In this document: positions 1 to 32,850 of the stretch, one piece after another
Layout of the letters: every line of letters starts with the position of its first letter
Position numbering within the stretch: position 1 is the stretch's first letter
NCBI GenBank assembly: GCA_049320885.1
Contig: JBMORA010000009.1
Location: 32,001 to 96,000 of the forward strand
DNA length: 64,000 nt
Source: Thermodesulfobacteriota bacterium
GTDB taxonomy: Bacteria > Desulfobacterota > Desulfobacteria > Desulfobacterales > SURF-7
Direction: 5' to 3'
Position numbers and translations under genes: made by a program
The notes under the pieces: generated by a model
Told to the model about the DNA's origin: nothing
Database searches by the model: none
The model's input: only the letters and a program-made list of their open reading frames with translations

Positions 1-1127
1 CGTACACGGGGCCGGGCGGCGATCACTACATTTTTGAAGGCTTCGAGGTCACCGGCGGGACATCTCGGGGGATCTATCATCAGGCCAGCGATCTCACCAT
101 CCGGGATGTGGTGGTTCACGACTGTCCGGCCCATGGCCTTTTGGGCGCGGATCAGGGCTCCGGATCCCTGCTGATGGAATATGTGGAAGTCTACAACTGC
201 GGCAGCGGCACCCAGCGGCATCAGATCTATATGGCCACCGACGAAGTCCATTATCCGGGCAGCGTGTTCCGGATGCAGCATTGCTACATTCACGACGGCA
301 GCGGCGGCAACAATGTAAAAACCCGGTCCGAACGCAACGAGATTTACTACAATTGGATCGAGGGCGCTTATTATCACGAACTGGAGATGATTGGACCCGA
401 TGGAGGCGACGGCGGCGATCCCGGGCTGGCCCGGGAGGATTCGGATGTGGTGGGTAACGTGTTCGTCAAGACCCGGGAGTTTGCCGTTATCCGGGCCGGC
501 GGCGACGGCACGGGGGAGACTGGCGGCCGCTACCGCTTTGTGAACAATACGTTCATCTCCGCCGGTCCGGCGGTTTTTCGATTGTTCGACGGTATCGAAA
601 GTATCGAGATGCATAACAACGTGTTTTTCCGCAACAGCGGAGTGGTGGACATCATGCGCACGGTGGATGCGAACTGGACCACCGGCAGCGCCGTGATCGC
701 CGGTAGCAACAACTGGGTGCTCCAGGGCGCCGCCAATGTGCCGGTTCAGTGGCTCTTCACCATCACCGGCGCGGATCCCGGCTGGTTGAATCCGCCGGGC
801 CTTGATGTCCGGACGGCTGCCGGCAGCCCGCTGGTCGACGCCGGGAATCCTGCGCCTTCCGGACCCGCTGGTTATCCCTTCCCGGATCCGTTTTTCCCTC
901 CGGCGATGCACCCGCCGTTGCGGCAATTGGAATCCACCGGCACTGCGCAGACGAGACCGTCGTATGGCGCCATCGACATCGGCGCGTTTGAATTTTTCGA
1001 CGCGGATTTTTCAGCGGATCGGGATGCCGACGGCGATGTGGACGGAAGCGACCTCGCCGTCTATGCCGCGGCAGGTGATTTCAACCAGTTGATTTTGTTC
1101 GCCGCTGCATTTGGTCAGGGCGGATAA
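1..1127 (+). CDS. Extracellular right-handed beta-helix protein (5'-partial) with C-terminal mini-dockerin-like tail
   Basis: Frame is open from position 3 (YTGPGGDHYIFEGFEVTGG...). It has repeated beta-helix-like strands (IYYNWI, VVGNVF, FVNNTF, MHNNVF), an IDIGAFEF motif and the tail DRDADGDVDGSDL...FAAAFGQ. Confidence 0.75.
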   Translation, partial: YTGPGGDHYIFEGFEVTGGTSRGIYHQASDLTIRDVVVHDCPAHGLLGADQGSGSLLMEYVEVYNCGSGTQRHQIYMATDEVHYPGSVFRMQHCYIHDGSGGNNVKTRSERNEIYYNWIEGAYYHELEMIGPDGGDGGDPGLAREDSDVVGNVFVKTREFAVIRAGGDGTGETGGRYRFVNNTFISAGPAVFRLFDGIESIEMHNNVFFRNSGVVDIMRTVDANWTTGSAVIAGSNNWVLQGAANVPVQWLFTITGADPGWLNPPGLDVRTAAGSPLVDAGNPAPSGPAGYPFPDPFFPPAMHPPLRQLESTGTAQTRPSYGAIDIGAFEFFDADFSADRDADGDVDGSDLAVYAAAGDFNQLILFAAAFGQGG

Positions 1128-1216
1128 TGATTTGGCGACGGCGACGTGGATGAACGGTTCCCAGGAAATCGATATCACCGGTGTGGAAAGAAGCACAGAG
1201 CTGGAGATAGGCGGCC

Positions 1217-3583
1217 ATGACAGAACAAAGTAAGTTCCGGAACCGCATGATTTTTTTATACATTCTGATGACGTTTTCCGCTGCCGGCGCCAGAGCCCGG
1301 GCAGCGCCATCCAATGAGGAACTGTATCAAGCATTGCCCGCGCCGGAGGCGGTGTGCGCGGATCATTTCAACGATTTCCTTCACTCCGATTTCGATGATG
1401 ACGCGGATTACCGGGTCCTCGAAGTCGGCGGCCAGCCGTTCACGGAAGCGCTGGAAGTGGCGGTCCACCGGTTGCCCGCATCCGAACAGCGCGTGAATCT
1501 GACACTTGTCTCGCAGGAACCGCTCCAGGACGACGAGATCCTGCTGTTGAGCTTTTATGCCCGCAGGGTGGATGCAGCGAACGGCCAAGCCAGTTTTTTG
1601 CTGCAACACAACGGCGATCCCTGGACGCAGTATGTTTCCTGGCGAGTCGACATCGGCAATGAGTGGCGGCGTTACTATCTGCCTTTTTCCATTCAGGTCT
1701 GGCGAGGGATGGGCGCCGAACGGCCGGTGCCGCCGCCCATGGACGGAGATGCGCACACCTTCGGGCGCGGTGAAGTCCGTTTTCGTCTGTGCCTGGGAAG
1801 CACTGTGCAAACCCTTCAGTTCGCCGATGTCCACCTGGCCAATTATCGTCAGCAGGTATCGGGGACGGAGTTTCCCATTACCCTTGAACCGGGGGCGGGA
1901 ATGATCAGCGTACCGCCGGAAAATGAATTTTCCGCTGGTCCGGCCTGGATTCCCGATATCCTGGGAAGATCCGTTAATGAAGATCCCTATCTGCCGGATT
2001 TCAGCTATGCAGGCTTTGCGTTTGGGGAAATCTGGCCGCCGGTAATCGATCCCGGTGAAACCAGTTTGACGGTCACGGCCTTCGGTGCCGTTCCGGATGA
2101 CGGCCTGGATGATACGATCGCCTTGCAGAACGCCTTGACGGCGGCGCATGGGGTGAGCGGACCGGTTTGCGTGGCGTTTCCTCCGGGAAAGTTTCATATC
2201 CGCGAAATCCTGTTTGTCCGACGCAGCCATATGCGCTTGAAGGGAGCCGGCAGCGGGCCGGAGGGAACCATTCTCGCCGTTACCAGGCCCATGGCGGACA
2301 TGATCCGTCCGCCCATGATACGGGAAATGGAGGAAGCCATCCGGGAAGAGAATCTGACCACCGGATACGGTGAACCGTATTCGCCGTTTTCCTGGACCGG
2401 TGGTGTCATCTGGTTGGGTAGAAACAGCGCCGGACCAGGCGAAGCGGTTTTGACGGAGACACTTGGGACCGGCTTGCGGGGCGCACACGCGGTGGGCGTG
2501 GGAGACGCCTCCCGTTTGACGCCGGGGATGATCGTCGGCTTGCGGTATTATGACGATTCGCCCGGAAATCCCTTGCGCGAGCATGTATTCGGCTGCACCA
2601 GCCTGGATTTGCCCATGGGTTTTGGGGAGGAATTACCGGAGGAGCCGGAAGTGTGGCAGTACCTGACAGTGGACTCGGTTCAAGAACAGGAGGTCAGGTT
2701 CAAGGAGCCCTTGAATCATGACATTCAATCAGGCTGGCGCGGCGAACTCCGCGAATCCCATTTTCTCACTCACCTGGGTGTGGATAGCCTCTGCATCGAA
2801 TTTCCGGAAGCCGTTTATGCCGGTCATCACATCGAAGCGGGCTATAACGCCATATACACCAACGCCGTGGCGCATGCCTGGATTTCCAACGTACGGATCG
2901 TCAACTCCGATTCCGCAATCATCGTGGATTCCTCCAAAAATGTCACTGTTCAGGAAATCGGCATTTCCGGCCGGGATGGCCATTATTCGCTGATGGCCGC
3001 CGATTCGGACCAGATTCTGTTCCGTGATTTCACCATCAGCGCCCGGGCCTGTCATAATCCCAGTTTCAACACCTACAGCCGCACCTGTGTCTACAGCGGT
3101 GGCAACGTGTGCTGGCCCATGCTGGACCAGCATTGCGGGATGAATCACCAGAACCTCATGGAAGATCTGGTTTTGACCGGCCCGGCCCGCCAGCTTTGGA
3201 CCCATGGCGGCAGTGAGTCCCGGCGTCCGGCTCACGGTGCCGGCAATACCTTCTGGAATCTTCGTTTGGAACCGGCGAACAGCCTGCCGGTGGTGGCGCC
3301 GGGAATCGGCGACGGCCCCAATGCGATTTTCGTGGGTTGGCGTACACGGGCGGAGCTTCTGTTTCCGTATGGTCCTTTTGCCCATGCGGAGGGAATGGGC
3401 CGGGCGGATATGGCGGTTCCTTCGTTGCATGATTACCAGCTGTCGGGCCGGCTTGGAGGAAATCATGACTGTTCAGCCGATGGCGACAAAGATGCGGATG
3501 TGGACGGGTTTGACCTGTGGTACTTGATACAAAAGGGTGGGAATCAATGCCTTCCGGATCTCGCGCTGTCATTCGGAAGATGA
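1217..3583 (+). CDS. Secreted pectin-lyase-fold (beta-helix) protein with N-terminal CBM-like domain and C-terminal mini-dockerin-like tail
   Basis: Signal peptide (ILMTFSAAGARA). CBM4-like segment LLQHNGDPWTQY...EWRRY. The segments LPDFSYAGF and VTAFGAVPDDGLDDTIALQNA...FPPGKF are typical of pectate_lyase_3-type N-termini. Tail DGDKDADVDGFDL...LALSFGR. Confidence 0.75.
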   Translation: MTEQSKFRNRMIFLYILMTFSAAGARARAAPSNEELYQALPAPEAVCADHFNDFLHSDFDDDADYRVLEVGGQPFTEALEVAVHRLPASEQRVNLTLVSQEPLQDDEILLLSFYARRVDAANGQASFLLQHNGDPWTQYVSWRVDIGNEWRRYYLPFSIQVWRGMGAERPVPPPMDGDAHTFGRGEVRFRLCLGSTVQTLQFADVHLANYRQQVSGTEFPITLEPGAGMISVPPENEFSAGPAWIPDILGRSVNEDPYLPDFSYAGFAFGEIWPPVIDPGETSLTVTAFGAVPDDGLDDTIALQNALTAAHGVSGPVCVAFPPGKFHIREILFVRRSHMRLKGAGSGPEGTILAVTRPMADMIRPPMIREMEEAIREENLTTGYGEPYSPFSWTGGVIWLGRNSAGPGEAVLTETLGTGLRGAHAVGVGDASRLTPGMIVGLRYYDDSPGNPLREHVFGCTSLDLPMGFGEELPEEPEVWQYLTVDSVQEQEVRFKEPLNHDIQSGWRGELRESHFLTHLGVDSLCIEFPEAVYAGHHIEAGYNAIYTNAVAHAWISNVRIVNSDSAIIVDSSKNVTVQEIGISGRDGHYSLMAADSDQILFRDFTISARACHNPSFNTYSRTCVYSGGNVCWPMLDQHCGMNHQNLMEDLVLTGPARQLWTHGGSESRRPAHGAGNTFWNLRLEPANSLPVVAPGIGDGPNAIFVGWRTRAELLFPYGPFAHAEGMGRADMAVPSLHDYQLSGRLGGNHDCSADGDKDADVDGFDLWYLIQKGGNQCLPDLALSFGR

Positions 3584-3796
3584 AATGGCCATGTCGGATG
3601 AGGGGTTTTTGTTTGGCGCGGGGTTGCCTGTATGCTTTTGGTAACAATTGGGTTCACGGGAGTATCCACTGTTCACTCCATTCCAGTTCGTTTCTGGTGG
3701 GCAAATTTTGTCGGCCAGAGTGAAGAGATAGTAATCGACGGCAGCCGTTGAAGACTGAAGTGCAATAACCGTGTGCCGGATCGGCATGCGGAGCCT

Positions 3797-3812
3797 TGGC
3801 ATGACAATTGCT
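3797..3812 (+). promoter_or_regulatory. Sigma-54 (-24/-12) promoter upstream of the cohesin-dockerin and VPLPA-CTERM genes
   Basis: TGGCATGACAATTGCT matches TGGCAY-N5-TTGCW with exact GG-N10-GC spacing, about 120 bp before the ATG at 3930. Confidence 0.7.
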
Positions 3813-3929
3813 CCATCCTGGTGTTACATCTCGGGAAAGCAGGGAACCTTTTCTGCTTACGAGGAAGATTCAACAACCCAACGGGCATATCCGAAGAAAA
3901 CTCGATCGTTTCCTAAAGAAGGAGGAAAG

Positions 3930-4616
3930 ATGCTGAAAACAACAGTCTGGCTGATTGTTTGCGCATTTTGGCTGTTTGGATCCGGAGATCCGATGGCCGC
4001 GGAAGTAAATGTCGCGGCGGAAGGCGCCTATACGGAAACCGGCTTGGTGGTGGAAGTATACGCAGGAACGGCAACCGCCATTCTCAGCTACGGGATCAAG
4101 CTGACCTATGATGCGGAGCAACTGGAAGTTAGCGGGGCGGAAAAAAACGAAACCGTCTGGTTTATGGGCGACGGAACTCCTTCCGGCAACAGCGCCTACA
4201 TGAATCCCGATACGAGTGTTCCGGGAGAAGTTGTCATTATCGGCGGCAAGCTGGACACGGCGGCTCCAGCGGCAGGTGTCAGCGGGCAGAGGATTTTACT
4301 GGGTAGGGTGTTTTTCAACCGGACGGATTCATCCATGCCGTTTGCGCCGACACTGGCCATTGACCTTGCCAGAACCAGTCCCTATGCCAATTTTGTTTCC
4401 ACGGCCGGCCAAATTCTCGATGGCGACGGAGTGGGTTTTTCCATGAAAGTGGTTGAGCGCGGCGACTGCAATGGCGACGGCTCGATCACGCCGGCGGATA
4501 TCATGGCGGTCAAGAGCCGTATCGGATCGGCCAATGCTCCCTGCTATGTGGATTGCAACAACGACGGTGCGGTTACACCCCAGGACATCAACTGCGTCAA
4601 GCGCAAGATACACTAA
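3930..4616 (+). CDS. Secreted cohesin-like domain + two-repeat (type I-like) dockerin protein
   Basis: GGAGG RBS before ATG 3930 and a signal peptide. Cohesin-like strands ILSYGIKLTYDAEQL and ILLGRVFF. Duplicated Ca-binding dockerin loops GDCNGDGSITPADI and DCNNDGAVTPQDI. Confidence 0.75.
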   Translation: MLKTTVWLIVCAFWLFGSGDPMAAEVNVAAEGAYTETGLVVEVYAGTATAILSYGIKLTYDAEQLEVSGAEKNETVWFMGDGTPSGNSAYMNPDTSVPGEVVIIGGKLDTAAPAAGVSGQRILLGRVFFNRTDSSMPFAPTLAIDLARTSPYANFVSTAGQILDGDGVGFSMKVVERGDCNGDGSITPADIMAVKSRIGSANAPCYVDCNNDGAVTPQDINCVKRKIH

Positions 4617-4680
4617 GGCAAGATATGTCACGCCTGGATGGGTACATGCAACTGGCTTACAAAAAGGAGGTCTGGCAATT

Positions 4681-5202
4681 ATGAAAAGAAATATCTTTTT
4701 TCTGATGGTGCTGTTCATGGTATGGGGAACCGGCGCGGCTCACGCCGCCTATATTTATACGCTGGATGTCACGATTCCCGACCCGTTGGGGATCGCTGAA
4801 AAATCGCAACGAATCGGCATGGTGGACTTTCGGGTCAGCGGCGGTGTTTTGAATACGGATTGGACCTATGAACTCGGAACCGTCGTGCCTGCAAGCGGAA
4901 ACTGGATTTTCGAGGTTTACGGCGGGGGCTGGTCGGCCTTGTATGACAATTATCCCTGGCCCCTCAGTGATGACGCGATCGCCCCGCTCCAGGGCAGCGG
5001 CAGGCTGTTGACCATCAATTCCAGCGTTCCCTTGACGTTCACGGATTTGGGGTTCGGTGATTATTCCGGCAATCCAGTGGAATCCGGCTATTTGACATCC
5101 GGAGGTTTTCAGGACGCCAGCGCGGTGCCGATCCCGGCCCCGATCTTCCTGTTGGGCATGGGATTGATCGGTCTTTGGGGCGCGCGGCGGCAGCAAGCGT
5201 AA
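4681..5202 (+). CDS. VPLPA-CTERM (PEP-CTERM-class) exosortase-sorted surface protein
   Basis: AAGGAGG RBS and signal peptide ending AHA. C-terminus VPIPAPIFLLGMGLIGLWGARR is motif + TM helix + basic residues. Confidence 0.85.
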   Translation: MKRNIFFLMVLFMVWGTGAAHAAYIYTLDVTIPDPLGIAEKSQRIGMVDFRVSGGVLNTDWTYELGTVVPASGNWIFEVYGGGWSALYDNYPWPLSDDAIAPLQGSGRLLTINSSVPLTFTDLGFGDYSGNPVESGYLTSGGFQDASAVPIPAPIFLLGMGLIGLWGARRQQA

Positions 5203-5330
5203 ACAGAAAGGGCGAAAAATCCCTCACCCGGTATGGCGGCGGCGGGGGCGTTCTATCCAGACCCCCCTGCCGATAGCGCCTAGCGATGGCCCATTTCAGG
5301 ATGGGCGCAGTCTAACAAAGGAAGCAGCCC

Positions 5331-7445
5331 ATGTATCCGAGATCCCGAACACAGCGAATTCGAATGCTTACATTTCTGTTGACCATTATCGTATCGTCGC
5401 TGCTCTTTGGATTCCAGCGCAGCGTTCAGGCCGCGGGTCCGATCATTGCCGATCATACCATCACCGACATCAGCGCCGTACCCGCTTCCGCGTTTGAGAA
5501 CGCCAAGGCGCAATTGCATATCGCCTACGGCCATACTTCCCACGGCAGCCAATTGATAACCGGCATGAGCGCCCTGGCGGCGGACGACGGTTTGTTTTCC
5601 TTCAACAACGGCGGCAACGGGGGCGCCCTGGATCTGCATGATGGCGCCTTTTCCGGTGCGTCGGATCTGGGCAACCCCAACCGAACGGCCTGGGAGACCG
5701 CCACGCGCACGTATTTGAACAATCCGGCCAATGCGGACGTGAACGTGGTAATCTGGTCCTGGTGCGGCCAGGTGGATGGGTCGGCGGCGGACATCCAGCA
5801 GTATCTCGATTTGATGAACGGCCTGGAACTGGATTACCCGCATGTTAAATTCGTTTACATGACCGGCCATCTGAACGGCACCGGCGCGACCGGCAATGTG
5901 AACCAGCGCAATGAACAAATCCGGAATTACTGCGTCACCAACAACAAAATCCTGTTCGACTTCGCGGACATTGAAAGTTTCGACCCGGACGGAAGCGTGA
6001 ATTATATGGCGTTGAACGCCAATGACAACTGTGACTACTCCGGCGGCAACTGGGCGAGCCAGTGGCTGGCGGCCAACCCCTCCCATGAGCTGGCGCTGCT
6101 GGCTTCGTCCGGAAACTGCGGCAGCTGCGCCCACAGCCAGCGTTTGAACTGCGTATTGAAAGGCAGGGCGGTCTGGTGGCTGTGGGCCCGGCTGGCCGGT
6201 TATGAATCAAGCGAATGCGCTGCCCAGCCGACGGGGCTGTCGGCGACTTCCGACAGCCCCGGTCAGCTCACCACAATCCAGTTCCAGGACAATTCCGTGA
6301 ATGAGGACAGCTTCGTCCTGCAGCGCCAGGTGGACGGCGGCGTCTGGGAACAGGAATACGCCGTGCTGCCGGCCAATACGACGACGTTTACGGATACGGG
6401 CCTGGGTTCCGGTATGTATTGTTACCGGGTGCTGGCGCATCAGAATGACGACGGCACGGGTCAGCCCTGCAATTCATTGCCGTCCAATTCCGCCTGCGCC
6501 CAAATCACCCTGCCGATGCCGCCTGCTGCGCCGTCCAATTTGAATGCCCAACTGTCCGGCGGCGATGTTCAGCTGAGCTGGCAGGACAACTCCGACAATG
6601 AAATCCGAATGACGGTGGCGCGGAGCATGGATGGACAGGCCTTCGCGGTGCTTGCAACCCTTGGCGTCAATATTACGGCCTATACGGATTCCACTGTTTT
6701 ACCGTTGCACACCTACACGTATCGGGTATCCGCGGGAAACGACTACGGCGATTCCGATTATTCCAACGAGGCCTCCCTGTATGTCCCGGAAGCAACGGTT
6801 GATCCGGTCACCATCCGGCTGACCAGCGCGGCGGAGGTGGACGATGCCTTCCTGCGAGCGGATTATCCGGACACCAACTATGGGTCCACCAATTATCTCG
6901 GCCGGACCGAACCGCCGTTTTCCTTTGCAATCAAATTCCACCTGCCTTCCACGCTGCAGAACCAGAAAATCACCGATGCCCGGGTGGCTTTTTATGGCTG
7001 GAACCAGAGTGCTTTTCCGTCCGGCGAGTATCTCAATCTGTACAACGTGACGACAGCCTGGAACGAAGGCACGGTCACCTGGAATTTCCCCTGGTTGACG
7101 CCGGGGGGGGATTACGACACGACGCACATGCTGGGCCGCACGGAATTTTCCAGCGGAGCGGATCATGCCTATTTTGCGCCCATCGTAATCACTTCCACTG
7201 TTCAACAATGGGTGGACGGGTTGACGCCCAATAACGGCATGATGCTGGTGCACGAAGCAAGCGCCCGAACAGGTCTGAAGGCCAGTGAATACAGCGGCGG
7301 AAAGTCGTACCTCGACATTACCTATATTCCATGTGAGGTGGACCTGGACCATGACGGTGATGTGGACGGGTCGGATCTGGCGGTGAAGGCCCTATCCGGG
7401 GATGTCAGCTGTCTGGATGCCCTGGCGACCCGCTTTGGGCGATAG
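5331..7445 (+). CDS. Secreted multidomain protein: SGNH-like N-terminal domain, 2x fibronectin type III, DNRLRE-like domain, mini-dockerin-like tail
   Basis: Signal peptide ending VQA (true start may be a few codons downstream). AYGHTSHGSQL...AHSQ motifs. FN3 motifs WQDNSDNE and YTYRVSA. DDAFLRADYPDTNYG...WNEGTVTWN...VQQWVDG..NNGMML segment. Tail DLDHDGDVDGSDL...LATRFGR. Confidence 0.75.
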   Translation: MYPRSRTQRIRMLTFLLTIIVSSLLFGFQRSVQAAGPIIADHTITDISAVPASAFENAKAQLHIAYGHTSHGSQLITGMSALAADDGLFSFNNGGNGGALDLHDGAFSGASDLGNPNRTAWETATRTYLNNPANADVNVVIWSWCGQVDGSAADIQQYLDLMNGLELDYPHVKFVYMTGHLNGTGATGNVNQRNEQIRNYCVTNNKILFDFADIESFDPDGSVNYMALNANDNCDYSGGNWASQWLAANPSHELALLASSGNCGSCAHSQRLNCVLKGRAVWWLWARLAGYESSECAAQPTGLSATSDSPGQLTTIQFQDNSVNEDSFVLQRQVDGGVWEQEYAVLPANTTTFTDTGLGSGMYCYRVLAHQNDDGTGQPCNSLPSNSACAQITLPMPPAAPSNLNAQLSGGDVQLSWQDNSDNEIRMTVARSMDGQAFAVLATLGVNITAYTDSTVLPLHTYTYRVSAGNDYGDSDYSNEASLYVPEATVDPVTIRLTSAAEVDDAFLRADYPDTNYGSTNYLGRTEPPFSFAIKFHLPSTLQNQKITDARVAFYGWNQSAFPSGEYLNLYNVTTAWNEGTVTWNFPWLTPGGDYDTTHMLGRTEFSSGADHAYFAPIVITSTVQQWVDGLTPNNGMMLVHEASARTGLKASEYSGGKSYLDITYIPCEVDLDHDGDVDGSDLAVKALSGDVSCLDALATRFGR

Positions 7446-7461
7446 CAAACGACCGGTAGTG

Positions 7462-7501
7462 GAAAAACTCCCGGCCGGGGAACGCCCGGCGGGAGTTTTT
7501 C
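7462..7501. terminator. Rho-independent terminator-like hairpin (A/T tracts on both sides)
   Basis: GAAAAACTCCCGGCCGGG...CCCGGCGGGAGTTTTTC inverted repeat right after the stop at 7445. Confidence 0.7.
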
Positions 7502-7521
7502 GTTGAAAGGAAACGACCCGG

Positions 7522-8778
7522 ATGAAAAACCGATTTGTAATGTCATGTGTCATCTGGCTTTGTCTGTCCCGCGGTATGCTTTGGGCCGCGGATCTTTCGG
7601 TTTCCGATTTCGGCCAGCTGATTTCCGCCCTGGACAGCGCCGCGCCGGGGGATACAATTTTGATGGCGGACGGGGTCTATCAGATATCCGGAACCTGGGC
7701 CGTCGCCGTGACAACGCCGGATATTGTCATCCGCAGCGCTTCCGGAAACCGGGAGAACGTCATCGTCAATGGAATGGGGATGAACGCGGCAGGGCATCAC
7801 GGGTTTTGGGTCAGCGCCCATGATGTTACCATCCGGGATCTCACGGTGCAGAATGTGCGCAACCATTGCATTCAGACCGACATAAATGTGGACAATCTGC
7901 GGATTGTCAATTGTGTGTTGCGGGATGCGGGGGAGCAGATTCTGAAGGTTCCCTTCAGCAGCGGAATCGCTGATCCCGCGGAAAACGGAATCGTCGAAAA
8001 CTGCCTGTTCGAATACAGCGCCGGATTCGGACCGCGATCCTATATAGGTGGAATCGATGTGCATTTTGGAAGGGATTGGATCGTCCGGGACAATACATTC
8101 CGTTTTATTCGAAGCCCCGGGGGATCTCTCGCGGAGCATGCCGTCCATTTCTGGACCAATTCGGAAGGCACGCTGGTGGAGCGCAACAAGATCATCACCT
8201 GCGACCGGGGAATCGGGTTCGGTTTAGGATCGAGCGGTCACACAGGGGGTGTTATCCGGAACAACATGATCTATCACGATGGCAGCCCCGGATTCAACGA
8301 CGTGGGTATCGGTCTGGAAAACGCGAGCGATGTGACGGTATGCAACAACACCATATGCCAACTTTCCTCATACCCGAACGGGATCGAATACCGCTTTCCG
8401 GGAACGACGGCGAGAATCGAGAACAATTTGAGCAATAAAGCCATCGCCGGCCGGGACGGCGGTGCGGCGATTTTTGGCGGCAATCTGACCAACGCCCTGG
8501 AATCCTGGTTTGCGGAGCCGGAAAGCGGTGATCTGCATCTGGCCTTTCGGGTTGAAAGCGTGGTGGATCAGGGGATATTCAGCGAGCATGTCCAGGATGA
8601 CTACGACCGGCAGGTGCGTTCTCCAGGTTCTGCCATGGATATCGGTGCGGATGAATTGTCTTTCTGCCGGCCGGATGGCGATATGGATGCAGACGTTGAC
8701 GGCAGCGACCTGGTTCATTTCCTGGAGAACTATCAGGACGGCTGTCTTGCAGAATTCGCCGTGGCATTCGGTCGCTGA
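7522..8778 (+). CDS. Secreted right-handed beta-helix (polysaccharide lyase/NosD-like fold) protein with mini-dockerin-like tail
   Basis: Signal peptide, AAPGDTILMADGVY, repeated xxRNNxI strands, MDIGADE motif and tail DGDMDADVDGSDL...FAVAFGR. Confidence 0.8.
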   Translation: MKNRFVMSCVIWLCLSRGMLWAADLSVSDFGQLISALDSAAPGDTILMADGVYQISGTWAVAVTTPDIVIRSASGNRENVIVNGMGMNAAGHHGFWVSAHDVTIRDLTVQNVRNHCIQTDINVDNLRIVNCVLRDAGEQILKVPFSSGIADPAENGIVENCLFEYSAGFGPRSYIGGIDVHFGRDWIVRDNTFRFIRSPGGSLAEHAVHFWTNSEGTLVERNKIITCDRGIGFGLGSSGHTGGVIRNNMIYHDGSPGFNDVGIGLENASDVTVCNNTICQLSSYPNGIEYRFPGTTARIENNLSNKAIAGRDGGAAIFGGNLTNALESWFAEPESGDLHLAFRVESVVDQGIFSEHVQDDYDRQVRSPGSAMDIGADELSFCRPDGDMDADVDGSDLVHFLENYQDGCLAEFAVAFGR

Positions 8779-8795
8779 TCCTTCGCGGTCTGGTG

Positions 8796-9434
8796 CTAGA
8801 AGAGGAGTGTAATGAAACAGATGCCGCTGCTGGAGGAATCGCCGGAATCGGAACCGCCGTCGCTTTCCGGGTTCCCCGGGGAATCGGCGCTTAGGGTCAC
8901 GGCGCCGAAGCGCAGGGCCTGGGTGTCATCATCCAGAATAACGTTGCCGGTTGTCACAAAATTTTTATAATCGCCGTTTTTGCCGATGGAAAGCGAAACC
9001 GCGGGCGGATTGGCGGTTGCGCGGTTGAAACGGACCGTGCCGAGAAGGATTTTATCACCACCGACGCCCGCGGCGGGATTGTCGGCGTCAAGCTTGCCTC
9101 CCACGATGATCACCTCTCCCGGATTGGTCGTCACCGGATCCACATACGCGTGTCGCTGGGCGCCCTGGCCGAAATACCAAGTCTCCTCGTTTTTTTCGGC
9201 GCTGACGAGGGAAAGATCGGCGGGGTTATACGACAACTTTACACCGAAACTGATCAGATTTCCGGATTGGATATCAGCATATATCCTTACGGTTACCATG
9301 CTTTCCGAAAATTCTCCCTCGCCGTAGACATGAACCGTCTCTGAAAGAGCCCGTCCGGGGAGGCTGAGCGTTGCAAAAAGGATCAGGAGCGGGAGCAGGC
9401 GGAATTGTGAGTCCTGCTGCGGGAAGGAGCGCAT
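8796..9434 (-). CDS. Secreted cohesin-like protein with Ser/Gly linker and C-terminal Cys-Phe-Ile (CFI-box-CTERM-like) sorting tail
   Basis: Clear paralog of 3930-4616 (AEKNE, PGEV.I.GGKLD, PAAGV.G..ILLG.V.FNR, Y.NFV). Ends SDGGSDSGDSSSSGICFITLLF. Confidence 0.75.
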   Translation of the reverse strand: MRSFPQQDSQFRLLPLLILFATLSLPGRALSETVHVYGEGEFSESMVTVRIYADIQSGNLISFGVKLSYNPADLSLVSAEKNEETWYFGQGAQRHAYVDPVTTNPGEVIIVGGKLDADNPAAGVGGDKILLGTVRFNRATANPPAVSLSIGKNGDYKNFVTTGNVILDDDTQALRFGAVTLSADSPGNPESDGGSDSGDSSSSGICFITLLF

Positions 9435-9664
9435 GGTTCAACATCCTTTCAAGTGGTTGGAATGCAATACCGGTTCGAAGTACCCTGCAGTTTCCTTACT
9501 CAATCGGTATTGAAATAGCAACCAGCTTTCTTTGTTTTTCGCATGTGAGCCTCGCTCCGACGTTGGTGAAGGGCTTGCCTTTTCAATTGATTAACCTTAG
9601 ATTTGATGATAACGATTATCGCTCGCCGGAAAGGCGCAGCAAAGAAGGATGCCGGAGCGCGAAT

Positions 9665-12613
9665 ATGCGAAAAAGATGTCTGACGATAGTGGTCTGCCTG
9701 ATGGTGTTGTCGGGGATTCATCCGCTCATCAAATTCACGGGAAAGCCTGGAATCCCCCATGCATGGAGTCTCCATTTCCGCACTGGCGCTGTGGCTGACG
9801 CGGCCGGCCTGGAAAACGGCACGGGGCTTGTGATCTGGCCCCATGAAAAAAGCGATCTGTCTCCGGACCCGGACGTCCGATATGGCCGATTTCCAAATGG
9901 ATTTCGATATATTTTGAAACACAACCAGGAACCGCGCAACCGGGTCAGCGCCCATCTTGTCATTCAGACCGGTTCCCTCAATGAAACCGAAGAGGAACGC
10001 GGTCTGGCTCATTTTCTGGAACATATGCTGTTCAACGGCACAACCCATTTCCCGCCGGGGGAGATGGTGAAATATTTCCAGCGCATCGGAATGCAGTTCG
10101 GACCGGATGCCAATGCGCACACCGGATTCAATGAGACGATCTATGATGTGCTGCTGCCCCTGGGGGACCGGAAACACCTGGAGGAAGCCCTGGTGGTTCT
10201 GCTGGATTACGCCCAGGGCGCACTCCTGCTTCCGGAAGAGATCGAGCGGGAGCGCAATGTTGTTTTGGCGGAAAAACGCACCCGGGATTCGGCCGAATAC
10301 CGGATCATGGAAGCGTCCCTGAATTTTGAGATGCCGGATACGCTTTTGCCCAAGCGGCTGCCCATCGGTTTGGAACCGGTCATCCGCAAAGCGGATCAGG
10401 CATTGTTCAAAGGGTTTTATGATGCCTGGTACCGGCCGGACAATATGATCGTTGTGATGGTGGGCGACTTTGATCCGACGGTGGCCGCCCAATTGCTGGA
10501 GGAAAAATTCGCCGGAATGATTCCCAGGGCTCCGTGGCGGCCGCTGCCTGATCTCGGTGAGCTGGCACATGAGGGCCTCAAGATATTCCACCACTATGAG
10601 AAAGAATCCGGCAAGACCGCCGTTACCATCGAGCGGATCAAAAAAGTCATGCCGGAACCGGATTCGTTCGATTACCAGAAACGCATGCTCGAAAAATACA
10701 TGGCGGACCGCATTGTTCAAAACCGGCTGGACAAACTGGTGAAGAAGCCGGATTCACCTTTCACCAGCGCCACGGTCAGCTCGGGAATCCACCTGCAGGA
10801 ATTTTTTTACGCGGATTTGATGGCCCATTGCCGCCCGGAAAACTGGTCGCAGTCTCTGGCCAAGATGGAAAAGGTGTTGCGAAAGGCGCTGCAATTCGGC
10901 TTCACGGAGAACGAGATCGAGAGGGTCAAGAAGGATCTCCTGGCGGAAATGGACAAGGCCGAAAAGGGAGCCGCAACCCGCAACAGCCAGTCGCTGGCAT
11001 ATGAAATCATATGGAATCTGGACAACGACAGGGTGTTTCAATCTCCCAAACAGGAAAAGGCGCTCTTCGCCCCGGTGGTGGGTTCGGTCACGGCGGCACA
11101 GCTCCATGAGGCCTTCCAGGATACCTGGGCCGAGGATTCGCGCTTGGTCCTGGTGACGGGAAACGCCGACATCGAACCGGCTCCAGAGGCGGCCATCCGT
11201 GAGGTGTTTGCGGCAAGCCGGAACGTCGCGGTCCAAAAACCAAAGGCGGTGGAATCCGCCCGGTTCCCCTATCTGCAGCCGGCCGAAACGCCGCTCCAGA
11301 TCGCAAAACGCGAGGACATCACGGATCTGGGAATTACCGTGATCGATTTTCAAAATGGTGTCCGCTTGAATTTGAAGCCGACCAGGTTCAAAGAAAACGA
11401 ACTGTTGGCGGCATTGCGTTTCGGCCGGGGCCGGTATGGGGAACCGGTGGACCAGGAGGGGCTGGCGGTGCTGGCCGAGGCGGTCTTGAACGAAAGTGGA
11501 ACCGCCACCTTGGACAAGGAGGAGTTGGCCGAGGCCTTGGCCGGTAAGATCACCCAGGTCCGGTTTCAGATCCGCGATGAAGCCATGGAAATGGCCGGCC
11601 GCAGCAGCCCGGAAGAGACCGAGCTGCTGTTTCAGCTTTTCCAGGCCTATCTTCGGGACACCGGGTTCCGTGAAGACGCCTATCAACTGGTGAAAGAGCG
11701 CTTTCGTCAGCGCTATGAGGCGCTCCAGCATTCGCCGGATGGCGCCATGGAACTGCATGGGAAGCGCTTTCTGGCCGGAGGAGACTCCCGGTTCGGTATG
11801 CCTGCGTATGAAAAGCTGACGGAAAGCTCATTGGACCGGATCCGCCAGTGGGTCCAGGACCAACGCGCCGGCACGGCGGTGGAACTTTCCATGGTGGGTG
11901 ATTTCGACGTGGAGACAGTGATTTCCCTGGCTTCCCGTTATCTGGGAACATTCCCGGCGCCGGTTTCCAAAGCAGAACCAGAAGACCTGCGGAGACCACA
12001 ATTCCCGGCCGGCAAATCACTTGCGCTGAAGGTGCCCACGGAGATCCCCAAGGGGCTCGTCGATGTGGCCTATCCCACGGATGATTTCTGGGACATCAGC
12101 CGGACCCGCCGAATGGTCATCCTGGGGGAGATCGTTTCGGAAATGATGCGCGTCAAAATACGGGAAAAGCTGGGCGCCTCCTATTCCTCCTACGCCTATA
12201 ACGATGCCAGCCGTGTCTATAGAGGCTATGGCGTGTTTCATGCCGTTGTGCAGGTGGCGCCGGAAGACGCGGAAATGGTGGTTCGGGAAATCCATCAGAT
12301 AGTGGAAGATATCCGTAATAACGGTGTCGGCGACGATTTGTTGAAGAGAGCCCTTGATCCGGTGCTGACCAGCCTGAAAGACATGCTCAGAACCAATCCC
12401 TACTGGTTGAACAGTGTCATGCAGGGCATGCGGCGGCATCCCCAGCAGCTGGAATGGGCCCGGACCCTGCTGCCCGATTACAGCAGCATCACCAGGAAGG
12501 ATGTCCGGGATTTCGCCCTGCGGTATCTTGACAACCGGAAAGCGGCCAGGATCGTGATCACGCCGGATAAACCAGAAAATGAGCCGCCCGGGGGCAAGCA
12601 GGGAGAATCATGA
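9665..12613 (+). CDS. M16 family zinc metallopeptidase (PqqL-like), exported
   Basis: GSLNETEEERGLAHFLEHMLFNGT inverted HxxEH zinc motif, NAHT and REKLGASY. N-terminal hydrophobic signal. Start taken at ATG 9665. Confidence 0.92.
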   Translation: MRKRCLTIVVCLMVLSGIHPLIKFTGKPGIPHAWSLHFRTGAVADAAGLENGTGLVIWPHEKSDLSPDPDVRYGRFPNGFRYILKHNQEPRNRVSAHLVIQTGSLNETEEERGLAHFLEHMLFNGTTHFPPGEMVKYFQRIGMQFGPDANAHTGFNETIYDVLLPLGDRKHLEEALVVLLDYAQGALLLPEEIERERNVVLAEKRTRDSAEYRIMEASLNFEMPDTLLPKRLPIGLEPVIRKADQALFKGFYDAWYRPDNMIVVMVGDFDPTVAAQLLEEKFAGMIPRAPWRPLPDLGELAHEGLKIFHHYEKESGKTAVTIERIKKVMPEPDSFDYQKRMLEKYMADRIVQNRLDKLVKKPDSPFTSATVSSGIHLQEFFYADLMAHCRPENWSQSLAKMEKVLRKALQFGFTENEIERVKKDLLAEMDKAEKGAATRNSQSLAYEIIWNLDNDRVFQSPKQEKALFAPVVGSVTAAQLHEAFQDTWAEDSRLVLVTGNADIEPAPEAAIREVFAASRNVAVQKPKAVESARFPYLQPAETPLQIAKREDITDLGITVIDFQNGVRLNLKPTRFKENELLAALRFGRGRYGEPVDQEGLAVLAEAVLNESGTATLDKEELAEALAGKITQVRFQIRDEAMEMAGRSSPEETELLFQLFQAYLRDTGFREDAYQLVKERFRQRYEALQHSPDGAMELHGKRFLAGGDSRFGMPAYEKLTESSLDRIRQWVQDQRAGTAVELSMVGDFDVETVISLASRYLGTFPAPVSKAEPEDLRRPQFPAGKSLALKVPTEIPKGLVDVAYPTDDFWDISRTRRMVILGEIVSEMMRVKIREKLGASYSSYAYNDASRVYRGYGVFHAVVQVAPEDAEMVVREIHQIVEDIRNNGVGDDLLKRALDPVLTSLKDMLRTNPYWLNSVMQGMRRHPQQLEWARTLLPDYSSITRKDVRDFALRYLDNRKAARIVITPDKPENEPPGGKQGES

Positions 12614-13434
12614 TACGCCCCCTGCTCCTTTTTTTCATGGCCACCGCCATGGCCTTCGCGGGCTCCGAAGCCCTCCGGGCCGAAGGACACAAGCCCCTGC
12701 CGTTTACCAACGACCTGGGTATGAAGTTTGTCTATCTTCCACCGGGCACCTTTCTGATGGGCAGCCCCCTGGATGAATTGTATCGCAATCCGGATGAGGA
12801 ACTGCATCCCGTAACGCTGAGCCGGGGATTTTTCATGCAGACCACCGAGGTGACCCAGCGTCAGTGGCGATCGGTCATGGGTTACAATCCTTCCAAATAC
12901 AAGGAGTGTGGAAGTGATTGCCCGGTGGAAATGGTCACCTGGAATGCTGTCCAGGCGTTTATCCGCAGGCTGAACGCCCGGAGCCGGGACATACAGTATC
13001 GTCTGCCGACGGAAGCGGAATGGGAATATGCCTGCCGCGCCGGAACGCGCACCCCGTTCTTTTATGGTGACTATCTGTCGTCGGATCAGGCCAATTATAA
13101 TGGCCATTTCCCGCTTCCCGGAACACCGCGGGGGATCAACCGCAACAGCACCATGCCGGTGGGAAGCTTTCCACCCAACGCTTTCGGCCTGTATGATCTG
13201 CACGGCAACGTGGTTGAATGGTGCCAGGATTATTATGGCGCCTATCCGCCGGGGGCGGTAACCGATCCCGTCGGTCCGGCGCGGGGGATGTCCCGGGTCT
13301 GCCGGGGGGGCGGGATGAGCAGCTATGCCCGGCGCTGCCGTTCGGCAAACCGTACCCGGCATTTACCGGATTATTGGAATTTTTACATCGGCTTCCGTCT
13401 GGTCTGTTCCGTAACGCCGAAGGGAACCAAATGA
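12610..13434 (+). CDS. Formylglycine-generating-enzyme (FGE-sulfatase/SUMF1) domain protein, exported
   Basis: FLMGS, TTEVTQRQW, YRLPTEAEWEYACRAG, PNAFGLYDLHGNVVEWC and IGFRLV motifs. Signal peptide. ATGA overlap with the upstream gene. Confidence 0.92.
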   Translation: MIRPLLLFFMATAMAFAGSEALRAEGHKPLPFTNDLGMKFVYLPPGTFLMGSPLDELYRNPDEELHPVTLSRGFFMQTTEVTQRQWRSVMGYNPSKYKECGSDCPVEMVTWNAVQAFIRRLNARSRDIQYRLPTEAEWEYACRAGTRTPFFYGDYLSSDQANYNGHFPLPGTPRGINRNSTMPVGSFPPNAFGLYDLHGNVVEWCQDYYGAYPPGAVTDPVGPARGMSRVCRGGGMSSYARRCRSANRTRHLPDYWNFYIGFRLVCSVTPKGTK

Positions 13435-31737: not shown

Positions 31738-32850
31738 ATGAAAACATTTCTCAACCTGATCCAGGAAGTGCTGGATCCGGGATGTTGTCATCGCTGCGGC
31801 GGCTGCGTGGCGTTTTGCGCGGCCGTCAATTTCGGCGCCCTGGCGATGGGGGAAGATGGAATCCCTTTCTACAAGGATAAGGATAAATGCATTGAATGCG
31901 GTTTCTGCTACAGGATTTGCCCGGAGATCGATGCACTCAGGGAAGAAACCCGGCAGCGGATTTCCTGGAGCCCGCCCCTGGGACGGATCCTGGATGTGAC
32001 GGTAGCCCGGGCCAGGGACGCCGGTCTCCGCGTTCACGCCGGGGGCGGAGGGGTCGTTACGGCGCTTTTATTGCATCTGTTCGATATCGGCCGTATCGAC
32101 GGCGCCATCGTCACAAAGGTGGTTGCGCCCTTTACCTGCAAGCCCTGGCTGGCCAGAACACGACAGGAAATCATCGAGGCCGGTGGATTTCATTTCGACG
32201 CTTCGCCCGGCGTGTCGCTTTTCGGGGAAAAATATGCCAGCTATCCGCCGTATCTGGAATTGATCGCGCCCATGGCCAAACAGAATCTGCGGCGGATAGC
32301 GTTTGTCGGCCGTCCTTGTCAGATTGAAACCTTGCGCCGGATGGAAACCCTCGGTGTTGTGCCTTCGGAAGCCATCAAGTACTATATCGGTCTTTTTTGC
32401 ATGGGGAATTTCCGGTTCGGGGCGGATGAGCAGGAGAGGCTGGAGAACATCGGAGGATTCAACTGGGCGGATGTGCGGAAAATCAATTTCAAGGAGGGAC
32501 TCCAGATTCATCTGAACAACAGAGAAGTAAGGGTGATTGACATCCACCAGCTGAATTTCATGAAACGGTATGCGTGCCTGCATTGCGGTGATTATGCCGC
32601 CGAGTTTGCCGACATCTCCTGCGGCGGCATGGGGTCGGCCGAGGGCTGGACCAGCGTCATCATCCGGACCGCCGTGGGCAGAGCGATTGTCGCCGATGCG
32701 GCCGAGGGTGAACTGGAACTGTTCAGCCAATCGAAAAATCAGGAGGTGGCGCACCGGGCGTTGAGTAAAATCCGCGTCATGTCCGACAGAAAGAAAAATA
32801 TGGCCAGGCAGAATCGGATGGAGCTGCTGGAAAAACCAACAGCAGAGTAA
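31738..32850 (+). CDS. Coenzyme F420 hydrogenase/dehydrogenase beta-subunit (FrhB/FdhB) family protein with N-terminal 2x[4Fe-4S]
   Basis: CHRCGGCVAFC and CIECGFCYRICP ferredoxin motifs. GGVVTALL, VGRPCQI, IGLFC, CLHCGDY...ADISCG and GWTSVIIRT motifs. Confidence 0.9.
   Translation: MKTFLNLIQEVLDPGCCHRCGGCVAFCAAVNFGALAMGEDGIPFYKDKDKCIECGFCYRICPEIDALREETRQRISWSPPLGRILDVTVARARDAGLRVHAGGGGVVTALLLHLFDIGRIDGAIVTKVVAPFTCKPWLARTRQEIIEAGGFHFDASPGVSLFGEKYASYPPYLELIAPMAKQNLRRIAFVGRPCQIETLRRMETLGVVPSEAIKYYIGLFCMGNFRFGADEQERLENIGGFNWADVRKINFKEGLQIHLNNREVRVIDIHQLNFMKRYACLHCGDYAAEFADISCGGMGSAEGWTSVIIRTAVGRAIVADAAEGELELFSQSKNQEVAHRALSKIRVMSDRKKNMARQNRMELLEKPTAE

Follow-up and report, generated by a model that had tools for sequence, protein, structure and literature searches.

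A gene cluster of a Desulfobacterota bacterium that probably encodes a two-tier cohesin–dockerin surface display

We analysed a window of 64,000 nucleotides (positions 32,001 to 96,000 of contig JBMORA010000009.1, assembly GCA_049320885.1) from a Thermodesulfobacteriota bacterium of the Desulfobacterales. The window corresponds to G000:C9:32001-96000, G000 being the source genome and C9 and C43 its contigs. The gene cluster at its start probably encodes a two-tier surface display, in which a cohesin of a small adaptor protein (cohesin A) would hold the short dockerin-like tails of large exported cargo proteins, and a cohesin-like domain (domain B) of a PEP-CTERM protein would hold the dockerin of the adaptor. 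Support for this interpretation comes from the order of the genes, from motifs and predicted folds, and from patterns of co-occurrence and covariation. A preliminary description of the same DNA had proposed a cargo, adaptor and anchor logic, which is supported here, with wiring different from the one first suggested. Every open reading frame (ORF) of the cluster is present at the coordinates given there; one boundary is corrected, the gene of cargo 1 starting about 320 bp upstream of the first position of the window. The components are as follows.

1..1127, plus strand: cargo 1, 3' part; secreted beta-helix protein of about 481 residues; tail at 1005-1121
1217..3583, plus strand: cargo 2; secreted beta-helix protein (pectate-lyase-like) of 788 residues with an N-terminal domain without family; tail at 3467-3580
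3930..4616, plus strand: adaptor; signal peptide (by eye), cohesin A at 4002-4445, two-repeat symmetric dockerin at about 4455-4613
4681..5202, plus strand: predicted anchor; signal peptide (by eye), cohesin-like domain B at 4747-5124, PEP-CTERM-type tail at 5125-5199
5331..7445, plus strand: cargo 3; 704 residues, unnamed N-terminal domain, FN3, CBM96/DNRLRE; tail at 7329-7442
7522..8778, plus strand: cargo 4; secreted beta-helix protein of 418 residues; tail at 8662-8775, used for complex prediction
8796..9434, minus strand: CFI protein; second cohesin A at 8892-9335, Ser/Gly/Asp linker, short CFI end

The adaptor and the CFI protein are paralogues, as had been suggested, with 34% identity over the full length and 43% over the shared domain. 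The assignment of this domain as a cohesin, previously made by eye, was borne out by its predicted structure (predicted local distance difference test, pLDDT, of 96, from 115 aligned sequences). In the fold comparison (VIA), the top 20 rows were all cohesins (best Z 14.2, root-mean-square deviation (rmsd) 2.8, 134/151 aligned), and Foldseek returned 58 matches with E no higher than 0.001, every listed row being a cohesin entry. The cut-off of the Pfam cohesin family PF00963 is not reached by cohesin A of the adaptor (13.8 bits vs 24.1), the CFI paralogue has no match to it, and a PDB sequence search with cohesin A returned none. The dockerin of the adaptor, joined to cohesin A without a linker, lies over the cut-off of PF00404 (40.3 bits vs 22.9, E 3.7e-10), shows two calcium loops with helices, and its profile retrieves solved dockerins, down to E 7e-9.

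The combination of cohesin and two-repeat dockerin was found in 148 relatives of similar length and at 33 loci in the genome collection, the closest relatives being Desulfobacterales, Desulfobacteraceae or Deltaproteobacteria records. Among the best 150 of 289 cluster representatives of cohesin A, 78 have this form according to a strict script. The remaining 72 comprise 5 partial sequences, the CFI form of the window, and 66 fusions to other C-terminal modules, in which different dockerin types, short hydrophobic ends and a PEP-CTERM-like end were recognized by eye; the IPTL-CTERM of one fusion passes its cut-off. Eight proteins (P0121, P0126, P0145, P0151, P0179, P0190, P0207, and P0235) carry after cohesin A a short hydrophobic end with Pro, often Trp, several Leu and acidic residues, a candidate anchor signal that NCBIfam does not name in any of the 5 scanned. 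At L083:488-1273 (G151), cohesin A follows an N-terminal Cys-rich segment and a membrane helix and no dockerin is present, making this a membrane-anchored form of opposite polarity. Adaptors at L039, L049, L078, and L023 are split by frameshifts or have a decayed second loop, due to gene decay or assembly error.

The PEP-CTERM protein at 4681-5202, to which the preliminary description gave no role, is likely the anchor. Its VPLPA-CTERM character had been noted, and the motif, the hydrophobic helix and the basic cluster are indeed clear by eye, although the tail scores remain below the curated cut-offs (15.8 vs 20.7 for PF07589, 17.3 vs 25.35 for TIGR03370). One homologue of the anchor is labelled "PEP-CTERM sorting domain-containing protein" by NCBI. 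Among complete adaptors with at least 800 bp of downstream DNA, a PEP-CTERM gene follows directly in 38 of 40, or at 35 of 37 distinct loci when 3 duplicates are removed; 37 calls were made by pattern and one (L051) by eye, and 14 complete adaptors with less DNA were left out. The same neighbour was found in 12/12 further two-repeat adaptors taken from the genome handles, one of them frameshifted. Genome-wide, such PEP-CTERM genes number only about 13.

Domain B is probably a divergent, hypervariable cohesin, as judged from its model (pLDDT 93). The mean column identity of the B neighbours is 16%, vs 35% for cohesin A. They nevertheless make up one family: 6 held-out members match its profile at E 7e-7 to 8e-20, other PEP genes of those loci do so at E 0.15 or worse, and in this genome 4681-5202 alone matches. 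In the VIA comparison the top 9 rows are cohesins (Z 6.0-6.6; best rmsd 3.8, 107 aligned), as are the top 11 rows in Foldseek. The alignments begin at cohesin residue 16-31, about 18, and thus domain B would be without strand 1. Three B neighbours match the cohesin A profile (E 1e-7 to 1.5e-4), and of the neighbours of divergent adaptors, picked by position, one in 8 is over the Pfam cohesin cut-off. A PDB sequence search with domain B gave no match, and an Atlas feature search gave no usable one; structure rows there had template modelling (TM) scores of 0.52-0.56, several of them in cohesin clusters, under the naming bar. As a separate observation, a second, unrelated PEP-CTERM gene often comes after the anchor gene (L029, L031, L050, L051, L077, L086, and L087), forming small arrays.

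The adaptor dockerin and domain B appear to change together and to move jointly in exchanges whose breakpoint lies within the adaptor gene. Covariation was assessed in 37 of 43 loci, after dropping 3 near-duplicates and 3 loci with 5'-truncated cohesins. The similarity of dockerins follows that of B domains with a partial r of 0.27, a value reached by 0/2000 permutations, while for cohesin A and B it is -0.01 (p 0.55), even though cohesin A shares a polypeptide with the dockerin. In 25/37 cases the locus with the nearest dockerin also holds a top-3 B neighbour; the cohesin A equivalent is 4/37. Sliding windows give values about zero or negative at the 3' end of cohesin A; they step up at the cohesin–dockerin junction, from -0.06 to 0.26, and lie at 0.19-0.26 across the dockerin helices. 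Trees of the dockerin and of B have 7 of 34 splits in common, and either of them shares 2 with cohesin A, both own-genus splits. The location of breaks inside the adaptor gene, and not between the dockerin and B, suggests selection to keep that pair together.

Repeat symmetry of the dockerin was observed at positions 10, 11, 14, 17, and 18, in what we take to be the numbering of dockerin recognition positions. In 128 dockerins, the two repeats match there in 97, 94, 91, 92, and 66% of cases, respectively, compared to 14, 19, 10, 47, and 17% after shuffling, while positions 4, 8, 16, and 19 show no excess. Across lineages the recognition positions are diverse (~ 3 bits), but within one dockerin the two repeats agree at them. 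Positions 9-11, 13, 14, 17, and 18 carry a mean covariation signal of 0.13 vs 0.04 at other variable positions, with the reservation that they were selected after the symmetry result was known and that columns are not independent. Symmetric and diverse recognition positions are described as the pattern of a working dual-mode dockerin in PMC12484212. By its sequence, the adaptor dockerin has the symmetric recognition residues expected of a dual binding mode.

The four large proteins of the cluster share, as first described, a C-terminal tail of 38 residues, composed of D-x-D-x-D-x-D-V-D-G-x-D-L, a short helix and an A-x-x-F-G end. It consists of a single calcium-type loop followed by two helices with a short linker between them, the second ending in A-x-x-F-G (helices judged from sequence); a Cys pair is often present. 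A 13-position pattern of the tail matches 7/58,099 six-frame ORFs genome-wide, 6 of them in the cluster, which rules out a chance motif. The tail genes outside the window are two just upstream (C9:28088-29479 and C9:29476-31614) and one on contig C43. Among the 7 proteins of this genome the tail is N-terminal in two (C9:29476-31614 and the C43 protein) and permuted in one, and of 56 ORFs in related loci, 5 carry it at the N terminus and 6 internally. A sorting signal tied purely to the C terminus is therefore rejected. The permuted tail belongs to a secreted protein of 463 residues without Pfam family (C9:28088-29479, equal to L001:14088-15479); the F-G helix comes first and the calcium loop second, resembling a two-repeat tail trimmed at both ends. 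A further match to the tail falls within an open frame as long as 15,496 residues that immediately follows a cohesin–dockerin gene (G150:C3 near 235909, L081).

In 21 aligned tails, Asp at calcium-loop positions N, N+4, and N+11 is invariant, and at N+2 it is present in most. The best PDB matches of the tail are dockerins (E 0.0018). The Pfam dockerin model matches 5/21 tails at E up to 1 (best 1.4e-4), all below the cut-off, and the NCBIfam GC-type dockerin NF041540 gives 13.7 and 24.1 bits at a cut-off of 29. The duplicated loop–helix repeat is absent from the tails of this genome, which have one loop and two predicted helices, while relatives hold both the short tail and the two-repeat form.

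Tails co-occur with the cohesin A family. In a sample of 301 genomes of the order, cohesin A was detected in 19, tails in 25, and both in 17; tails are thus present in 17/19 A-positive vs 8/282 other genomes, and 2 genomes are cohesin-only. The Fisher p of 7e-20 for this association is overstated, because kin are not independent and profiles come partly from sampled lineages. In a phylum sample of 301 genomes, cohesin A was found in 8 (one marginal), tails in 15, and both in 7, so that 7/8 A-positive genomes have tails; cohesin A is present in all 6 genomes with at least 6 tail matches. In genome G350, cohesin A is fused straight to PEP-CTERM with 7 tail ORFs alongside and no adaptor within 20 kb, which shows a one-tier version of the system.

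Complex prediction weakly suggests that the tail may bind the adaptor. A three-chain job with the adaptor, domain B and the tail as partner scored 0.59, graded weak by the tool; the best control reached 0.02, and replacing the adaptor gave 0.00. Between runs, at least 96% of contacts coincide, and the partner has a pLDDT of 74 or more. The mark used for this score is reached by 116/157 solved and 2/215 mismatched pairs, and scores at the mark but not above 0.60 belong to 18 solved pairs and to both mismatches.

The cargo was surveyed in this genome and in 50 of the 56 tail ORFs of related loci; the other 6 were 4 orthologues from the same genus and 2 short fragments. Domain labels given earlier to the large proteins hold for beta-helix and CBM96/DNRLRE, and for FN3 at E 0.004, below the cut-off; labels "SGNH-like" and N-terminal "CBM-like" found no support, with zero Pfam, NCBIfam or PDB matches. 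A PDB sequence search with the N-terminal domain of cargo 3 (5331-7445), to which the SGNH label referred, was likewise empty. The 7 own cargo proteins are 4 beta-helix proteins, an FG-GAP propeller, one with FN3 and CBM96, and one without family. Related-locus cargo includes enzymes (beta-helix 7, S8 protease 4, C25 protease 1, GH17 1, GH18 1) and adhesin-like domains (FG-GAP 4, PKD-type 6, FN3 3, vWA 1), and 9/50 are without any family match. The cellulase families GH5, GH9, and GH48 are absent from the 7 own and the 50 related-locus cargo proteins. The preliminary notion of a glycan-modifying mini-cellulosome is therefore too narrow, given proteases and adhesin domains, only one GH17 and one GH18, and no cellulases. 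The part of cargo 3 at window positions 5331-6220 is an unnamed domain of 260 residues with 3306 relatives (40-70% identity) and no Pfam family. Among relatives it is fused to many export modules, and in several, one of them a named Bacteroidota, it is joined to a type IX secretion tail; these type IX fusions fit the expectation for surface cargo.

The CFI protein lies on the minus strand and ends in linker-CFITLLF, as reported before. Its tail had been read as a CFI-box, a reading the curated model does not sustain: NF041770, with 69 positions, has no match on 8796-9434 and one sub-cut-off match elsewhere in the genome. A linker with a CFI end occurs in 15 ORFs of at least 200 residues in the genome, compared to 0-2 for nine control tripeptides, thus indicating a real C-terminal signal distinct from the NCBIfam CFI-box. 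Most of these approximately 15 proteins, with acidic/Gly/Ser linkers, stop within 10 residues and have no membrane helix, while a few carry a helix and a basic end; possibly this is an undescribed short sorting signal. An intramembrane protease of the CPBP type, which scores below the MrtJ cut-off, is located at G000:C21:9312-16699 between the weak CFI-box match and a CFI-ended gene and represents a candidate processing enzyme for the short signal; a search for MrtJ-type proteases found none over the cut-off. The fusion of cohesin A to a CFI end is seen in 3 same-genus genomes only, and just one of the best 150 representatives has it. For this reason it cannot be the anchor of the family, and the earlier proposal that the CFI protein anchors the adaptor is not supported, its cohesin also being of the adaptor's own type. 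The CFI protein probably provides an additional cohesin A with an anchor of its own, which would serve as a direct cargo receptor.

Several observations weigh against the two-tier interpretation, in addition to the relatedness of sampled genomes and the origin of profiles mentioned above. The complex job was a three-chain one, outside the calibration and without contact output; its score covers the tail as partner, with the dockerin–B pair outside it, and may pass by likeness to solved cohesin–dockerin structures. For domain B, Z is below 8, the best Foldseek E is 2.6e-3, Pfam cohesin PF00963 matches 0/28 members, and a profile–profile comparison of B and A shows no similarity. The PEP-CTERM neighbour is absent at L023, where the second dockerin loop is decayed, and at L033 (a record titled Omnitrophota), and L081, L084, and L090 have cohesin A with another dockerin type and no PEP neighbour. 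The dockerin and B adjoin in DNA, and linkage alone could yield their covariation. Finally, tail-only genomes account for 8/25 tail-positive genomes in the order and 8/15 in the phylum sample. The preliminary description had held that wide occurrence of tails in genomes lacking the cohesin would refute the pairing, and this is partly the case.

The last point speaks for the alternative that tails work without a cohesin, as calcium-binding tags on the envelope or matrix, by self-pairing, or as export signals, with the cassette serving other partners. Tail-rich order genomes without cohesin A exist (G232 with 11 matches and 95% completeness, G276 and G110 with 8 each). Cohesin A was found in 0/8 tail-only order genomes; the Pfam cohesin, the adaptor-dockerin profile and domain B, searched in 5 tail-only genomes each, gave only a single dockerin match, in a 1230-residue ORF of G276; and ten stretches of such genomes, read directly, have tails and no cohesin. 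Scores under the Pfam dockerin cut-off and the missing second calcium loop agree with this explanation. Nevertheless, we consider it unlikely: nearly all A-positive genomes carry tails, often within one operon, N-terminal and internal tails fit poorly to a C-terminal export signal, and the predicted complex score, weak as it is, needs the adaptor. In addition, one-loop dockerins of Ruminococcus flavefaciens bind cohesin, according to PMC12270676.

Slightly less probable still is that the same pairs bind, with adhesion in trans as their main job, the adaptor bridging the anchor of a kin cell to matrix-bound cargo. The many adhesin-like cargo domains are in line with it, as is the presence of the cassette in records titled Seep-SRB2 and listed as Seep-SRB1a, and cohesin/dockerin genes are reported as highly expressed in consortia of ANME and sulfate-reducing bacteria (SRB) in PMC10553843. 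However, the highly expressed Seep-SRB2 protein PXF55063.1 differs from the cassette pair there (PXF54711.1 and PXF54712.1), and enzymes are common among the cargo too. The least probable alternative is that the adaptor dockerin binds cohesin A, either of the CFI paralogue or of adaptor copies arranged as head-to-tail spacers, leaving the PEP-CTERM gene a bystander: A-type cohesins number just two in this genome, PMC12270676 and PMC12484212 describe ScaH as a spacer of variable length, and the cohesin match of domain B is middling, but the CFI form was seen in one genus only, the dockerin tree shares far fewer splits with A than with B, and a hypervariable dockerin poorly fits the conserved one of the two cohesins. 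A self-polymerising adaptor was downgraded because of the PEP-CTERM adjacency and the dockerin–B covariation.

In the two-tier interpretation, Sec would export cargo, adaptor and anchor. PEP-CTERM tails are processed by exosortase, and the genome contains two exosortase genes over the PF09721 cut-off, which would act on the tail of the anchor. Two GspD secretin genes are also over the cut-off, and passage of the components through the outer membrane may rely on a type II secretion system; alternatively, they could reside in the periplasm. Calcium would fold the dockerin loops, and the adaptor would bind cohesin B in either of two orientations. Many kinds of cargo bearing one near-constant tail code would load onto cohesin A, with the CFI protein as an extra, directly anchored copy, whereas dockerin and cohesin B of the lower tier would act as a lineage-specific lock. 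More tentatively, and with a probability well short of even, the adaptor may turn the near-constant cargo tag into a lineage-specific key, the key–lock pair being swapped by recombination inside the adaptor gene as a self/non-self system. If so, lineages could capture any tagged protein, those of neighbours included, while only kin could use the adaptor. This would imply self/non-self recognition on sulfate reducers, ANME partners included, and a natural library of dozens of orthogonal cohesin–dockerin pairs together with a family of 38-residue dockerins.

In Clostridium thermocellum, an SdbA-type protein acts as the anchor, CipA as the scaffoldin, and OlpA and OlpC as direct receptors. We think it likely that the locus is a real system working like such two-tier attachment, without being a cellulosome. 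Common features are two orthogonal cohesin–dockerin pairs (anchor–scaffold and scaffold–enzyme) and an extra surface cohesin of the enzyme-binding type. Differences are one cohesin per protein, no CBM3 scaffoldin and no cellulases, PEP-CTERM in place of SLH or sortase, a Gram-negative envelope, and a hypervariable anchor pair. The genome holds two single A domains and one B domain, and no multi-cohesin primary scaffoldin was found in it. A true cellulosome is thus rejected, as neither such a scaffoldin nor dockerin-bearing cellulases are present.

Parallels also exist in R. flavefaciens, where the ScaE anchor and ScaC/ScaH include a monovalent cohesin–dockerin adaptor that switches specificity, and truncated dockerins of group 2 have one calcium loop and two helices; they are described as the only known functional naturally truncated dockerins (PMC12270676). 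Unlike them, the system studied here belongs to another phylum and has another anchor, and its tails, in which a Cys pair is common, terminate in A-x-x-F-G and show transitions to two-repeat forms. The "planctosome" of Nemodlikiaceae (PMC6461901) and the complex of Ca. Stygibacter (PMC8542988) are likewise predicted non-cellulolytic Gram-negative cohesin–dockerin assemblies, and the planctosome model also has an anchor, an adaptor and peptidase cargo. The planctosome anchor is a lamin-tail protein, that of Stygibacter a C-terminal domain on a multi-cohesin scaffoldin, and the passages covered mention neither a covarying lock nor a PEP-CTERM anchor or one-loop tails. In the same phylum, cohesin/dockerin adhesins are described for syntrophic sulfate reducers (PMC10553843), and table S10 of that paper includes one adaptor of the cassette family, labelled a "type I dockerin" protein and assigned to a Seep-SRB1a genome. 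In the rows for the contig, neither the cohesin of the adaptor nor the PEP-CTERM neighbour is listed, and the assembly logic is absent from the parts covered. Proteins of NF041540 are similar in carrying short C-terminal dockerin-like tags on secreted proteins, with the scores below cut-off noted above.

In the literature covered, mostly outside subscription journals, no paper was found for PEP-CTERM with cohesin, PEP-CTERM with dockerin, or CFI-box, and dockerin with exosortase gave one archaeal review that treats them separately. No description of a swappable two-tier cassette was found either, in a scope that excludes supplementary files 13-17 of PMC10553843, which may bear on novelty. Two elements are probably new, namely a hidden hypervariable PEP-CTERM cohesin that segregates together with the dockerin of the adaptor, and a dockerin tag with a single loop and wide occurrence.

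Roles of cohesins and dockerins outside cellulosomes are considered an open question in PMC5244752 and PMC10553843. The locus names partners, an assembly order and a specificity code, and four small proteins make the question testable; Desulfosarcina variabilis (locus L042) is a cultured carrier of the cassette. The locus suggests a route by which enzymes and adhesins could be mounted on the surface of sulfate reducers, and a likely function for a class of anonymous PEP-CTERM proteins. It also points to a very short dockerin and to numerous orthogonal docking pairs of natural origin on which protein engineering could draw.

An RNA search of the region listed no RNA holder, and promoter and terminator counts are no higher than in shuffles. 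After the cluster, at window positions 9371-13434, a gene for an M16-type zinc protease (HxxEH, by eye) and an FGE-sulfatase-like gene (by eye) are located.

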